This document shows positions 13,253 through 17,967 of a stretch of 64,000 bases of DNA, piece after piece. Below the pieces are notes generated by a model. The model had not been told where the DNA came from and did not search any database. It saw only the letters and a list, made by a program, of their open reading frames with translations. Position numbers and translations under genes: made by a program. Source of the DNA: an uncultured Spirochaetota bacterium (GTDB taxonomy: Bacteria; Spirochaetota; Spirochaetia; SZUA-6; Fen-1364); NCBI GenBank assembly GCA_963820525.1, contig CAWGAA010000002.1, forward strand, positions 640,001 to 704,000, read 5' to 3'. How positions within the stretch are numbered: the stretch's first letter is position 1; the number at the start of each line of letters is the position of its first letter.

Positions 13253-14551
13253 CTACCGCCAGATCGCGTAGAGCGTCAGGGACGCTGCCAGTGTGGTGAG
13301 CACGGTGAACGGCCCGCCCACCCTGAGCCACCGCGCAAAGCTCACGGAGCGGCCCTCCTTCTTGACCATGCCCACCGCCACTATGTTGGCGGAAGCGCCG
13401 AAGGGCGTAAGGTTCCCGCCCAGGCAGGATCCAATGAGCAGCCCGAACATGAGAAGCTCGCCGTTGACGCCCAGGGAGCGCGCCAGGCCGCTGGCCACGG
13501 GCAGCATGGCGATGATGTAGGGCACGTTGTCCACGAAGCCGGAGATCAACACGGACACGACCACCATGACCACGAAGCCCATGACGAGGTTACCCCCGAT
13601 GACGCCGGAGAGGAGGCCCGCCAGATCGTCCAGCAGACCGATGTCCGCGATGGCGCCGATCACGATGAAGACACCGATCAGGAAAAGGATGGTTTCCCAG
13701 TCCAGGCGCTTCAAGAGCTCTCGCGCTTTGGACAAGGGCTCCTGCCGCAACAGGAGAAACCATGCCAGGCCCAAGACGGCCAGAACCATGCAGAGGATGC
13801 CGGAGCTTGCGTGCAGACCTTCCGACGTAATAAAGGAAATCAGGGCCAGACCCATGATCATGGCAGCGAGAAGCGCCGTAGGTACCCAGGACACCACCTT
13901 CTCCACGGGGAGGTCCAGGTGAACCTTCGGGAGCTTCCGGAAGTAGCCGTAGAAGTAGAGGGCTCCCGCGATCGCGCCCACCTGGACCACGAAGAAAATG
14001 GACAGCCTTCCGCCGTATACGAAGAAATCGTTGAACCCGAAGCCCGCGTAGGATGCGAATATCATGGAGGGTGGGTCGCCCACCAGGGTGGCGGTGCCCT
14101 GCAGATTGGCCATGACCGCGAGGCCGATTATGAAGGGGGTCGGGTCGATCTTGACCCGACGGCAGATCTCCAGGGCGATGGGAGCCATGAGCATGACCGT
14201 GGCCACGTTTTCCACGAACGCGGAGACGAACCCCGTGATCACCAGGATCGCCACGATGGCGATCCCCAGCGTTGGAGAGCGGTCCACTACCTGGTCCGCC
14301 AGTGCCGCCGGCACGCGCGAATAGATGAATAGATCCGCGATCACCAGGCTGCCAATATAGATTGCAAGGATGTTCCAGTTCACGAGCTCGCCCAAGGCCC
14401 GGCCCACGGATACGGCACCCGAACCGGGGAACAGGATGCCCGCCGCGAGCGTCAAGGCGGCGGTGCAGAGCGCGATGATCGCCTTTTTCTGGATGAACAC
14501 GACGACCAGACCGTACATGACCAGGGCAACCACCAGGATGAATAGCTTCAC
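13253..14551 (-). CDS. Ion-transporter superfamily permease (ArsB/NhaD/SLC13/CitMHS-like)
   Basis: SAFVENVATV, ANLQGTATLVGDPPS, SGFVDNVP, GGNLTPFGASAN; GTG start 14551 after SD ggagga. Confidence 0.9.
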   Translation of the reverse strand: MKLFILVVALVMYGLVVVFIQKKAIIALCTAALTLAAGILFPGSGAVSVGRALGELVNWNILAIYIGSLVIADLFIYSRVPAALADQVVDRSPTLGIAIVAILVITGFVSAFVENVATVMLMAPIALEICRRVKIDPTPFIIGLAVMANLQGTATLVGDPPSMIFASYAGFGFNDFFVYGGRLSIFFVVQVGAIAGALYFYGYFRKLPKVHLDLPVEKVVSWVPTALLAAMIMGLALISFITSEGLHASSGILCMVLAVLGLAWFLLLRQEPLSKARELLKRLDWETILFLIGVFIVIGAIADIGLLDDLAGLLSGVIGGNLVMGFVVMVVVSVLISGFVDNVPYIIAMLPVASGLARSLGVNGELLMFGLLIGSCLGGNLTPFGASANIVAVGMVKKEGRSVSFARWLRVGGPFTVLTTLAASLTLYAIWR

Positions 14552-14579
14552 GGTGATCCTCCAAGATCCGAGGCGTTTT

Positions 14580-14685
14580 GCTACGGTCTTGCCTATCCGT
14601 GGTGGATTGGAACAGCCGGAAACCCTTGGGTTCCGTGTTGACGACTTGTTCTTCCGCTTTGGGCGGCAGGCTACTCCCCGCTGGC
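14580..14685 (-). ncRNA. yybP-ykoY manganese riboswitch
   Basis: Minus strand reads cGGGGAGUAGC...aacaaGUCGUCAACACGG aacc caa gggu uuCCGGC uguu...gGCAAGACCg, i.e. the conserved segments of the motif in order, in the 5' UTR of a transporter. Confidence 0.88.
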
Positions 14686-14842
14686 ACCCGACGATACCAC
14701 GCCTCGGCGCACGCCGCAAGGGATTCGGATGATAGTGTCCGGGAGCGGAGATCAAGCTCTATCCGTTGGACGTTATCGACAGGATCGCGGCCCAAGCGGG
14801 ATTGGCGGTCAGGTCGGGCAACTTGATTCCGGGTTATGATCT

Positions 14843-16096
14843 TTAATCCATCGGTATCCGAGCCTCAACGACAACGCCCGTCTCCACCGTGAAACCGGCG
14901 TCGCCGGAAGGCGCATTTTCATCCATGTCGCTTCGGGCGAGGCGGACGTGCTTTTCCTTTTCCAGTGCGGCCAGCAGCTCCGGCTTCGGTATGCCGGCCC
15001 ACTGATCCCTCTGGATCGTGGATGCCATCGCCCATGCGCCGTCAGGAAGGAGGCTCTCGACGAAGCTCCTGGGCGTGGCGTTCTCGCTTCCGTGGTGCCC
15101 GATCTTGTAGAACCGGGTTTGTTTTAAAATATCCGCCCATCTTGGGTCTTTCATCGCGGTTGTCCACGTTCCCCATTGCGCATCGCCTGCGAAGAGCAGG
15201 TGCGTGCCCGCCATTTCCAGAACGAGCATAAGGCTCGTCCCGTTGACGGCCTGATCGAGCGCCACCACGGCTTCGAGGTCCGAGAATTGCGTGGAGCTTC
15301 TGATTTTTTGCCTGTCCTCCTCGGGAAAGGATGCACCCGAAGGCTCTCCGTGCTCGATGAACTGTTCCGCGAATGGGGCCCTGGGCTTGCCCGTCTCGTC
15401 GAGCGCGGCGGCATTGAGCCGCAGGTAGGTTTCCCCCTTCGGAGGCAGCATGTCGCGAATCACGTCCTTGTTCCGGGAAGGGCCCAGCGCGTGAATCGTA
15501 ACGCCGGGAAGGGCCTTTGATTCAAAGCTGCGCTCCGCTGGATCCTCGGCCGGGAGGAATCGCCTCCGCGCGCGGCCCTTGAACCCCGAATGAAGGGTGC
15601 GCATCGCCTTCTCGTTGGTGAGCGCGTTGCTCACCATCTCGGCAAACGCAGCCTCCACGGGATTTCCCGCCGCTGCTTTCGCCTGGAGAGAGGCGCTCAA
15701 GGCGAGGGCAAGCCTGCTCTGAGTCTCGCGGATCTCCCGCGCCTGCGGATCCGTCGGATCCTCGGTCCACGGAAGCCAGACCTCGCCTACCTCAACGCTT
15801 GCCCAGATGCCTTCCTCGAAACCCGAGACGTGGTCGCGATGCCGATGGGTGACCACCACGACGTCGATGCGAGGGACCCCGTCCGTCGAGGTGGCGTCCT
15901 TCACTATCCTGCTCACAACCTCGGACAGATTCCGTCCGGGAGCCGGGGCGATTGTCCCGCAGTCGAAGAGGATCCGTTTCACCCCGTCATCCGCCGGGAC
16001 GGTGACCAGGAATGCATCGCCGAAGCCGACATTGTACATTCGTACCGAGACGTGACGGGAATCTGCGCCATGGGCTGAAATCGAATGTTTTGACAT
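14843..16096 (-). CDS. Standalone MBL-fold metallo-hydrolase (ComEC/Rec2-type nuclease-like domain)
   Basis: NVGFGDAFL, ILFDCG, THRHRDH (HxHxDH), NGTSL, LLFAGDAQ, KIGHHGSENAT; no signal peptide or TM segment. Confidence 0.88.
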   Translation of the reverse strand: MSKHSISAHGADSRHVSVRMYNVGFGDAFLVTVPADDGVKRILFDCGTIAPAPGRNLSEVVSRIVKDATSTDGVPRIDVVVVTHRHRDHVSGFEEGIWASVEVGEVWLPWTEDPTDPQAREIRETQSRLALALSASLQAKAAAGNPVEAAFAEMVSNALTNEKAMRTLHSGFKGRARRRFLPAEDPAERSFESKALPGVTIHALGPSRNKDVIRDMLPPKGETYLRLNAAALDETGKPRAPFAEQFIEHGEPSGASFPEEDRQKIRSSTQFSDLEAVVALDQAVNGTSLMLVLEMAGTHLLFAGDAQWGTWTTAMKDPRWADILKQTRFYKIGHHGSENATPRSFVESLLPDGAWAMASTIQRDQWAGIPKPELLAALEKEKHVRLARSDMDENAPSGDAGFTVETGVVVEARIPMD

Positions 16097-16098
16097 GG

Positions 16099-17967
16099 CT
16101 ATCCTCGGTGCAGCGCGGAGAAGTTGGCGAGCGCCGCGATGCGGTTTGAGTGTTCATCCGGGCTCATGTAAGGGGTGTTCGCGTTCATCGCATCGGCCAT
16201 GGCGACGAAACGCCGCTGCCGGCAGTATCTCGCGTCCGCGGCTTGAGCCATCTGGGCAATGCCGGAGCGATCGAAGGGCTTGGTGATCACGTAGCGGACC
16301 ATGCCCTCGGCCGATGCAATGATGGTTGCTCCGCCCCGGAACGGCACACCGCCGAACCTCTGCCGCTCGCCGGCGTCCTGTTGGGCGAACTGCGCCACAA
16401 GCTCTATCAGCAGCCGGCCGTTGGGCGCCACGCGGAACACGGGATGGAATCCGCGAACCTGGATCTTTCGAGGCGGCGTGGGGTCGAACCCGAGCGCCTG
16501 TGCGTTCGCTTGAGCGTACTGGGCGAGCTGACGCGCGAACTCCTCGTTCAAGTCGAGCTGGAATTCCTCTCCCTGGTCCTCCGAGGTGTACTGTGCGGGT
16601 GAGGCGAGCGCGGAGGGAAGCGTGTAGCTGGACGGAGATTCCCACCCGCCCGTATCGAATGATCTGATGGCCTGGAAAAAAACGTCTTGGAGAAGGGCCA
16701 CCGCCTCCGTTCCGATGGGTGGAAGAGGAGGGGAAGGAGTGGGCCAGAGCAGGGACTCCTCGGCCAGGGACGATACCCCATCGGGATAGATGCCGCGAAG
16801 GCGGAATGCCTCGATCATGGCGTCGCGCAGGTCGGGATCGTCCTGGATCAGCTCGTAATCCGCGGTGACAAGGGCGCGCAGGAAGTCTCCAAAGGTGACG
16901 TCCACGGGCGGCAGATACTCGAAGGCACGGATGCACATATCCACCACGCGCTGGGCCGTCTTCGCCGCCTCGGAGGCGATCCTGTTCACGAGATCGGGAT
17001 GGAGGTCACCTGAGGGAAGCTGGCCGGTGCCGCCGGTGGCGATGCGGATGAGGTCGTAGATCCGCTTCTGGTACGCCTTGTGATAGCCGTCGAACACCGC
17101 AGCCACAAGGACGGAGCCCCTGTCGTGCGGCTCCAGAAGCGAATCTGAAAGCTTCGTGCCGGGGGCATCGAGTGCGGAGCGCAGCGCCTTGCCGCTTCCT
17201 GTCGCGTAGCCGAACTGGCGGGCCAGCTCGATCAGAGGCTTCGCGGTTCTGATGTCGCTTCGCGTCCTCTGGATATGCTCGCGCAGGATGTCGGGGTAGG
17301 AGAAGTGCTGGAACAGGGCCACGATATCGGCGAATCCCTCATGGAAGGCCAGGACATCCTCGTTGGTCGGCTCGAGGAAGAGCGGCCGCAGGCGGTCCAC
17401 CAGGGCATGGGTCATCTCGTGGGTGATAATGTCGTGCGAGAGGCAGGTGAACACGGTCTGGCCCGGGAGGTTGGCCCCGGGATTGGCGGCGTCGGCATGG
17501 AAGTAGCCGAAGAGGATGGCGTTGAGGTCCCGCGAGTAGAAAGCGTTCGCCCCATAGAATGCATGGGGCAGGAGCCGCAGCTTCCTGTAGGATGAGGCTC
17601 TGCGGCCGACTCCGCTCATCCGCGTGGGATGGCCGAGGGCGCGATCGAAGTTCTCCAGCGTCTTCATCGCCACGGCGTATACCATCTGCTGGTGGAACCT
17701 CGGATCCGACTCCGAAGGCTCGAGGCCGCCCTGCATGAGAACGGCGGCGTTGTTCAGGTCCACGGACTGGTAGAAGCAGTCGCGGGCCCCGTCGTAGTCG
17801 ATGACCTCCAGCCGGGGGCCAACCGGCCCGGGCACGAGGTTCTCGTTGGCCACGTCGATATGGGCGCGGTTTCCGTACGTGCGGCCGAGAAGGGGATCCG
17901 ATGCGAAAATTTTAAGCGGGCGTCGGACGGCCTGGGCTACTCCCTGGATCGGGACCGGTCGCTGCAT
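16099..17967 (-). CDS. Cytoplasmic thermolysin-like (M4/M36-like gluzincin) metallopeptidase
   Basis: NAFY, HEMTH (HExxH), third ligand in FHEGFADI, EPH at the thermolysin His-equivalent position; RBS aaaggagg; no signal peptide. Confidence 0.85.
   Translation of the reverse strand: MQRPVPIQGVAQAVRRPLKIFASDPLLGRTYGNRAHIDVANENLVPGPVGPRLEVIDYDGARDCFYQSVDLNNAAVLMQGGLEPSESDPRFHQQMVYAVAMKTLENFDRALGHPTRMSGVGRRASSYRKLRLLPHAFYGANAFYSRDLNAILFGYFHADAANPGANLPGQTVFTCLSHDIITHEMTHALVDRLRPLFLEPTNEDVLAFHEGFADIVALFQHFSYPDILREHIQRTRSDIRTAKPLIELARQFGYATGSGKALRSALDAPGTKLSDSLLEPHDRGSVLVAAVFDGYHKAYQKRIYDLIRIATGGTGQLPSGDLHPDLVNRIASEAAKTAQRVVDMCIRAFEYLPPVDVTFGDFLRALVTADYELIQDDPDLRDAMIEAFRLRGIYPDGVSSLAEESLLWPTPSPPLPPIGTEAVALLQDVFFQAIRSFDTGGWESPSSYTLPSALASPAQYTSEDQGEEFQLDLNEEFARQLAQYAQANAQALGFDPTPPRKIQVRGFHPVFRVAPNGRLLIELVAQFAQQDAGERQRFGGVPFRGGATIIASAEGMVRYVITKPFDRSGIAQMAQAADARYCRQRRFVAMADAMNANTPYMSPDEHSNRIAALANFSALHRG

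Follow-up and report, generated by a model that had tools for sequence, protein, structure and literature searches.

A yybP-ykoY manganese riboswitch ahead of an elevator-type permease gene in spirochaetes: a candidate Mn2+ exporter

Riboswitch targets have repeatedly led to new transporters, and the MntP, TerC and UPF0016 proteins were tied to manganese partly in this way. The same logic points here to an elevator-type carrier family that has no assigned substrate and comprises hundreds of sequence clusters across phyla. We analysed a stretch of 64,000 nucleotides of contig CAWGAA010000002.1 from an uncultured Spirochaetota bacterium ("the window" hereafter), in which the 291-nt intergenic region upstream of a permease gene holds an element of the yybP-ykoY riboswitch class. 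This riboswitch is an ON signal against Mn excess (PMC8632737, PMC11672702). The class is described as two stacked legs with the internal loop L1 docked on loop L3 and with P1.1 as the switch helix (PMC12153347), the L3 strand bearing an adenosine that contacts Mn2+ in solved aptamers (PMC11672702). Variants built on a three-way junction (3WJ) are known for alx and mgtA (PMC12153347, PMC6649816), and an mgtA variant has been described without P4 (PMC6649816). We consider it on balance probable that the leader in the window is a true four-way-junction (4WJ) Mn2+ riboswitch controlling an elevator-type permease which most likely clears excess cytoplasmic Mn2+. The gene and its leader are laid out as follows.

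13253..14551, minus strand: permease gene, 432 aa, GTG start; ion-transporter superfamily; hairpin-loop motifs E114-N115-V116, D159 and D341-N342-V343.
14557..14562, minus strand: Shine-Dalgarno (SD) sequence GGAGGA, 5 nt ahead of the permease start codon.
14581..14683, minus strand: yybP-ykoY Mn2+ aptamer of the four-way-junction type, placed by RF00080, by RNAalifold with pair counts and by model R1.
14671..14679, minus strand: L1 5′ strand GGGGAGUAG, the sole copy in the window, invariant in 9 of 9 4WJ-type sequences bar one G to A.
14645-14633, minus strand: conserved segment GUCGUCAACACGG.
14619-14615, minus strand: conserved segment CCGGC.
14592-14585, minus strand: conserved segment GCAAGACC, ending 33 nt before the GTG at 14551.
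14683-14678 with 14586-14581, minus strand: helix P1.1, CAGCGG paired with CCGUAG.
Between P1.1 and P1.2, minus strand: L1 internal loop, GGAGUAG opposite CAAGA.
14671-14669 with 14593-14591, minus strand: helix P1.2, GCC paired with GGC.
14666-14663 with 14657-14654, minus strand: helix P2.
14651-14642 with 14618-14610, minus strand: helix P3.1.
14635..14641, minus strand: L3 loop UCAACAC, unpaired in the RNAalifold consensus; GUCAACA is common to the E. coli mntP aptamer.
14634-14628 with 14625-14618, minus strand: helix P3.2.
14607-14604 with 14598-14595, minus strand: helix P4, AUCC paired with GGAU, read by eye, with covariation support from the 3WJ set only.

The N-terminus of the permease agrees with that of its orthologues. 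All the conserved yybP-ykoY segments named by the initial annotation of this DNA were found, on the minus strand. The conserved L1 loop (GGGGAGUAG, with AAGACC opposite) and L3 loop (UCAAC) are both present, and both are common to the mntP alignment. Outside the 4WJ type, the L1 strand is also invariant from GGGAGUAG on in 22/22 aligned 3WJ-type sequences, and GGGGAGTAG occurs a single time across the 64 kb. The Rfam model RF00080 matches positions 14555-14691 of the minus strand with 28 bits (E 6.5e-6 on 501 nt, permissive filters), and in the whole 5.05 Mb genome this is the best of two matches (E 1.5e-5). The other one (L002, 16 bits) lies inside a long open reading frame that begins with a signal-peptide-like sequence and was rejected as chance. 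The covariance check that had been proposed thus gave a significant match, but one that stays under the 45-bit gathering cut-off; at the Rfam gathering thresholds the window yields two tRNAs only and no report of RF00080.

Against RF00080 the validated mntP aptamer of E. coli reaches 41.6 bits, likewise below the 45-bit cut-off, which was passed by just 2 of 14 well-known control genomes. In the printed consensus of RF00080 (Rfam 15) the 5′ 25 positions, including GGGGAGUAGC, are unpaired and a long insertion is mostly empty; since the GGGGAGUAGC strand is unpaired there, P1 is absent from the model. An Rfam E-value scan of 17 orthologue loci returned no RF00080 match, which we regard as a failure of sensitivity because aptamers are detected in these loci by the motif as well as by model R1. 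Across 25 genomes of the window's family RF00080 found almost nothing. Rfam-based surveys would mostly miss the riboswitch-permease pairing, because among 151 sampled Spirochaetota genomes only 2 have a match at E<=0.001 and none reaches the cut-off.

Model R1 is a covariance model built from nine spirochaete 4WJ permease leaders only, and it was run over 100 sources. The window scores 92.1 bits as a training sequence. Outside the training set R1 scored highest on the mntP aptamer of E. coli, which it matched over its full length (L104:2463-2575; 37 bits, E 6e-6), and on this locus the RF00080 and R1 matches coincide. Across 92 genomes of the order, with 40 candidates per genome scored, R1 picked out only the window's genome, G002 and G015. 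A single Mn riboswitch was found in the window's genome by the RF00080 and R1 scans. In the alignment of nine 4WJ leaders, 93.1% of the cells in the helices are paired, as against 31-45% in slid controls; compensatory changes occur in 15 of 26 pairs, and none of 500 column shuffles scored as high. For the 22 3WJ leaders the paired fraction is 95.7% with compensatory changes in 11 of 16 pairs, again with 0/500 shuffles as high. Both structures were derived from the same alignments that were used for the counts, which somewhat favours them, and in the 3WJ alignment the MAFFT gaps are inconsistent in P3.1, so that the L3/P3.1 register there is provisional. Unaided, RNAalifold predicts P1.1, P1.2, P2, P3.1 and P3.2 from the nine 4WJ leaders. 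The legs P1.1-P1.2-P2 and P3.1-P3.2-P4 around a junction, as expected of the class, are therefore backed by covariation, P4 by way of the 3WJ set only. The window aptamer shows the class architecture, and most permease leaders are of the 3WJ type, without P2.

Three independent lines, namely the insensitivity of RF00080, the presence of the element in permease orthologues and the covarying helices, lead us to accept the identity of the element. Judged from sequence, the window leader is a yybP-ykoY Mn2+ riboswitch, and we take this as settled. The first reading of the leader as such a riboswitch ahead of an ArsB/DASS-like permease is borne out by RF00080, model R1 and covariation alike.

Orthologous permeases were collected from two GTDB species-genome scans, which gave 98 rows and, on removal of 8 duplicates, 90 distinct spirochaete loci. 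Enough upstream DNA was available for 87 of the 90, and the window brings the evaluable loci to 88. We found GGGAGUA...AAGACC in the leader of 36 of these 88 spirochaete permease loci, so that the survey which the initial annotation had called for extends the pairing well beyond the window. Among the carriers of the riboswitch is a cultured spirochaete, Breznakiella homolactica RmG30 (L031). One match to the motif (L067) was rejected as a riboswitch by eye. Also, a metagenome scan added 15 further loci, two of them with the riboswitch. At one locus (L097:430-520) the riboswitch directly follows an apparent tRNA-gene 3′ end (GGTTCAAGCCCC), and no recognisable promoter lies between the two.

A FastTree phylogeny was computed from 87 spirochaete permeases and 3 outgroups; two short rows were dropped from it and two loci without an N-terminus never entered. 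The basal Brachyspira/Exilispira and L018/L019 branches lack the riboswitch, and within the core clade it is scattered (present in 36, missing in 50, unknown in 1); no fewer than 16 gains or losses are needed to explain this distribution. Aptamer type, 4WJ or 3WJ, tracks the protein clades. From these sequences, the history of riboswitch and permease looks like long co-inheritance with repeated loss. Other spirochaete genes lie behind the same element. In G015, from a sister genus in the window's family, the gene behind it encodes a P-type cation ATPase (L125:1443-1656); the Mn riboswitch there is of the 4WJ type and has a clear terminator. In G238 a Mn riboswitch (RF00080, 30 bits) stands before an mntP gene, followed on the same strand by a gene for a LysR-type regulator (L202:843-1627).

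The permease matches the Pfam family CitMHS (PF03600; 2.6e-58, 198 bits vs. a cut-off of 31.9), with weaker ArsB and DctM matches, and carries none of the Pfam domains of MntP, TerC, UPF0016, CDF or P-type ATPases. NCBIfam models for MamN, DASS and ArsB stay far under their cut-offs (TIGR00785 for DASS: 74 bits vs. 199; the ArsB models: 64-72 bits vs. 415-760), and the source annotations are generic. The nearest solved structures by sequence are VcINDY (5.6e-15) and the ArsB of L. ferriphilum (8.8e-11). An AlphaFold2 model (pLDDT 85, pTM 0.81) has its best structural match in ArsB (10tp_A, TM 0.78), followed by VcINDY (0.74). The model shows the permease in an elevator fold of the ArsB/DASS kind, including two hairpin-loop motifs. 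The CitMHS match and the ArsB-like predicted fold uphold the earlier placement of the protein in the ion-transporter superfamily.

DASS carriers bind their substrate with the help of SNT motifs at the tips of the hairpins, and in ArsB Asn111 and Asn337 replace these motifs, with Asp112 and Asp148 serving proton coupling (PMC13381914). HMMER alignments put FVE114-N-V of the permease on the first S-N-T of VcINDY, FVD341-N-V on the second and GD159PPS on GSPPN. In place of the two Ser-Asn-Thr tips of DASS the permease therefore has E-N-V and D-N-V. Nor is the ArsB pocket reproduced: Asn111 and Asn337 align with N115 and N342, but Asp112 aligns with V116 and Asp148 with N149. Helices of the model break at residues 113-114, 156-159, 338-341 and 382-386, placing E114, D159, D341 and T382 at the breaks expected for the HP1, L1, HP2 and L2 motifs of the protein. 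Among 108 full-length representatives of 50%-identity clusters we counted D/E at position 114 in 95, N115 in 102, D159 in 99, D341 in 98 and N342 in 98. The predicted substrate site of the family is thus marked by [D/E]-N-V, G-D-P-P and D-N-[V/I], with three conserved carboxylates. Because these carboxylates and several amides occupy the substrate site of an elevator carrier, the motifs fit a cation, plausibly divalent, rather than a bare carboxylate anion as the substrate.

On this reading the permease would export Mn2+, probably as a cation/H+ antiporter. We infer Mn2+ as the substrate and the outward direction by analogy, since other targets of the same riboswitch class remove Mn2+. No MntP was found in the window's genome (completeness 96.7%), and at its TerC, GDT1 and CDF genes no riboswitch was found by the models, nor by the upstream motif at TerC and GDT1. 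Together with the ATPase and MntP targets in other spirochaetes, this makes the permease appear to fill the regulatory slot of known Mn exporters. By sequence, we have a known riboswitch class on a transporter family that is new for that class. The literature search found no link of the yybP-ykoY or manganese riboswitch to ArsB, CitMHS, NhaD, SLC13, YbiR or spirochaetes in this sense. Also possible, and offered tentatively as a view we do not quite hold to be probable, is a wider proposal. Under it the [D/E]-N-V / G-D-P-P / D-N-[V/I] branch, now annotated as arsenite, citrate or anion permeases, would consist of divalent-cation/H+ antiporters (Spirochaetota, Bacillota, Planctomycetota, archaea). 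The spirochaete clade would then form a sixth, structurally unrelated class of Mn2+ exporters, the first of the elevator type, brought under Mn-riboswitch control at an early stage of spirochaete evolution.

Several observations weigh against a Mn2+-clearing permease under a working riboswitch. The RF00080 score at the window lies below the value that defines Rfam membership. The riboswitch is missing from 52 of the 88 evaluable orthologue loci, and it was found before none of the permease relatives at 76 loci outside the spirochaetes; for this reason the permease family as a whole, which extends to Planctomycetota, Omnitrophota, Bacillota, Moduliflexus and Desulfurococcales among others, is not tied to Mn. 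The window's genome has a single gene each for TerC, GDT1 and CDF, which are other candidate Mn exporters. The literature search returned no experimental datum on any member of the permease family, and the pairing may already be listed, uncommented, in a survey of >8500 riboswitches (bioRxiv 10.1101/2024.09.30.615890). The folding results on the window leader, given further below, belong here as well.

The alternative that survives best, though we hold it unlikely, is that the riboswitch does respond to Mn while the permease carries another cation (Ca2+, Na+/H+ for pH control, Mg2+ or Fe2+) or a metal-carboxylate, Mn stress being relieved indirectly. The carboxylates of the site suit any cation, CitMHS is named for metal-citrate carriers, the sources call the protein an NhaD-like Na+/H+ antiporter, and the relatives without riboswitch outside the spirochaetes agree with such a role. 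Within the riboswitch class itself, a streptococcal member is also responsive to Ca2+ (PMC6649816, PMC11672702) and the alx member of E. coli couples Mn sensing to alkaline pH (PMC13594968). Yet two of the four known Mn exporter families, P-type ATPase and MntP, are targets of the riboswitch in other spirochaetes, and the replacement of Ser by an acidic residue in both SNT motifs speaks against a free anionic carboxylate as the substrate. We therefore keep Mn2+ export as the favoured function.

How the riboswitch would act was read from the orthologues. In 32 of the 36 riboswitch leaders a terminator overlaps the P1.1 3′ strand, which supplies its 5′ half (31 by script; L028, with a longer stem, by eye). 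The script took the 11-nt strand from GACC (L1 3′ side and P1.1 3′ strand) and looked for 9-11 complementary positions downstream followed by a U-run. As sequences go, this layout follows the textbook scheme of a Mn-ON switch: Mn2+ would, in most spirochaete orthologues, stabilise P1.1, the terminator would be blocked and the gene would be ON. A U-tract is lacking in four leaders, those of L003, L004, L026 and the window, which sit together in a GC-rich part of the tree. In this lineage of the window the U-tract has been lost and control is probably translational, with two strands as the candidate switch.

14584..14591, minus strand: switch strand CAAGACCG, L1 3′ side and P1.1 3′ strand, pairing with 14570-14562 in the unconstrained minimum-free-energy fold.
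14562..14570, minus strand: CGGAUCUUG, putative alternative partner of the switch strand (weak evidence), sharing its final G with the start of the SD sequence.

Without Mn2+, the freed switch strand CAAGACCG would pair with CGGAUCUUG, which abuts the SD sequence; with Mn2+, P1.1 would retain the switch strand. The alternative helix between the switch strand and the region of the ribosome-binding site (RBS) has 8 bp in the window and is of marginal significance: the duplex is worth -10.3 kcal/mol and 8.5% of shuffled strands equal it. The corresponding duplex in L003 reaches -13.3 kcal/mol (3.2% of shuffles equal), and in L004 and L026 it is not better than shuffles. The CAAGACCG/CGGAUCUUG helix of the window resembles a decayed counterpart of the terminator stems in L078, L080, L094 and L098. 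SD accessibility in the window is 0.22 with P1.1 forced vs. 0.72 in the free ensemble, a 4-bp CCUC/GAGG hairpin being responsible, and the start codon is mostly paired with and without forced P1.1. Thermodynamic folding of the four terminator-less leaders, with and without P1.1, gave no consistent switch. With window folding ambiguous, the direction of regulation is taken from the orthologues, and for the window itself translational ON control is only weakly indicated.

These folding results, which show no clear switch, would also suit an aptamer that merely survives in the window's lineage without regulating, the terminator having decayed and expression being constitutive or otherwise controlled. 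The four leaders without U-tract share their part of the tree with L005-L008, in which the riboswitch is lost and the mRNAs are apparently leaderless, as such an account would have it. We regard it as improbable, however: all conserved positions are intact, compensatory pairs are kept within the subclade, and a strong anti-P1.1 hairpin without U-run is kept in L004 (10/11 complementary positions) and L026 (8/11). Also, the pairing of the L003 switch strand with the SD region is better than 96.8% of shuffles.

A second proposal for the SD sequence turns on an inverted repeat around the aptamer, and the features needed to judge it are given here.

14714..14719, minus strand: -35-like hexamer TTGCGG of the inferred promoter, in the TTGnnn-N16-18-TAnnnT pattern of related leaders.
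14691..14696, minus strand: -10-like hexamer TATCGT, N17 from the -35, with a predicted transcription start near 14684, at P1.1.
14699..14707: 5′ arm CCGAGGCGU of the 9-bp inverted repeat, within the inferred promoter spacer.
14568..14576: 3′ arm ACGCCUCGG of the 9-bp inverted repeat, containing CCUC at 14573-14570 and adjoining the SD sequence GGAGGA.

Of 35 orthologous leaders, 31 have TTGnnn-N16-18-TAnnnT ahead of GGGAGTA, as does the window, and by our own estimate such a match is expected by chance in ~3% of windows. The distance from the end of the -10 to GGGAGTA is 9-17 nt in 29 of the 31 leaders and 12 nt in the window. The N17 spacing recurs in L003 (TTGCGC..TATGGT), L004 (TTGCGG..TAGACT) and L026 (TTGTCC..TAGATT). 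A promoter scan with the E. coli consensus made no call, the window promoter having 7/12 matches to that consensus. In the sister orthologues without riboswitch, L005-L008, a TTGCCC-N17-TAGATT ends 7 nt before the GTG (e.g. L005:1440-1503), and the sequences suggest leaderless permease mRNAs there. This layout supports the view that a degenerate -35 is used in the window's lineage.

The initial annotation had a helix of 14707-14699 with 14576-14568 enclose the aptamer and, with Mn2+ bound, sequester the CCUC anti-SD so that the SD sequence is freed. The repeat is indeed present and perfect, with CCUC in its 3′ arm, but it stands at chance level: when the intergenic region was shuffled 1000 times with its dinucleotides preserved, 117 of the shuffles (11.7%) held a perfect inverted repeat of >=9 bp. 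The CCUC does pair with the SD sequence in the P1.1-forced fold, so a competitor for CCUC would give ON logic. Also, transcripts long enough to include the 5′ arm could come from a weaker promoter-like TTGATC(14755-14750)-N15-TATCAT(14734-14729), or from transcription running on past the end of the same-strand gene at 14843; both were noted by eye, and no terminator was found between. The proposal is nevertheless unsupported and the least credible of those considered, because the 5′ arm sits inside the spacer of a positionally conserved promoter, no equivalent complementarity is seen by eye in the closest leader L003 or in L004 and L026, and a GC-rich helix of 9 bp would form regardless of Mn2+.

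Two genes lie upstream on the same strand. The nearer one (14843-16096, minus strand) codes for an MBL-fold protein with weak matches to Avs1a (anti-phage) and 6A-MBL, far under the cut-offs, and the farther one (16099-17967, minus strand) for a 622-aa protein without Pfam or NCBIfam match. At least half of the sampled words of window positions 13253-14800 were present in seven DNA runs of six studies (freshwater sediment, wetland and soil metagenomes), with no RNA run among them.

Mn2+ export by the permease, if it occurs, would account for the disposal of surplus Mn in many free-living and gut spirochaetes. The widespread labelling of such proteins as "arsenite/citrate permease" would then have to be corrected, and transition-metal efflux would gain a new structural solution.

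Comparison with known systems was made for the carrier as well as for its leader. With ArsB (PDB 10tp) and VcINDY the permease has in common the elevator fold, two hairpin-loop motifs and an internal repeat, whereas the hairpin tips differ: E-N-V and D-N-V in the permease, S-N-T twice in DASS, A-N-D and N-N-M in ArsB. E. coli YbiR is a distant member of the superfamily with 23% identity to the window permease (E 2e-6). We rejected it as a member of the same subfamily, as it has 372 aa, hairpin tips T-N-D and S-N-V and no riboswitch, and the literature search found no functional study of it. In E. coli K-12 (NC_000913.3), ybiR (853647-854765) overlaps the 3′ end of mntR (853183-853650) by 4 nt and adjoins mntS (L203:4184-5766). 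This unexplained genetic tie of the superfamily to Mn regulation points in the same direction as the Mn reading. Among leaders, those of L. lactis yoaB and S. pneumoniae mgtA (transcriptional ON, P-type ATPase) use the same terminator logic at the P1.1 3′ strand as 32 of the 36 permease leaders, but the window copy has no U-tract and most permease leaders are 3WJ without P2. Closest is the E. coli mntP riboswitch (4WJ, translational), which has the same L1 (GGGGAGUAGC), L3 (GUCAACA) and helix order as the window. Neither has an intrinsic terminator right after the aptamer, both stand before an SD sequence and both score under the Rfam 15 cut-off. The mntP aptamer, in contrast, ends 114 nt before the mntP coding sequence, while the platform of the window is ~30 nt and its gene is a permease, not MntP. 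The Mn exporters under riboswitch control (MntP, TerC, UPF0016/GDT1 and P-type ATPase) bear no sequence relationship to the permease, yet they are membrane proteins as it is, answer to the same regulator and show the ON logic that is found in its relatives.

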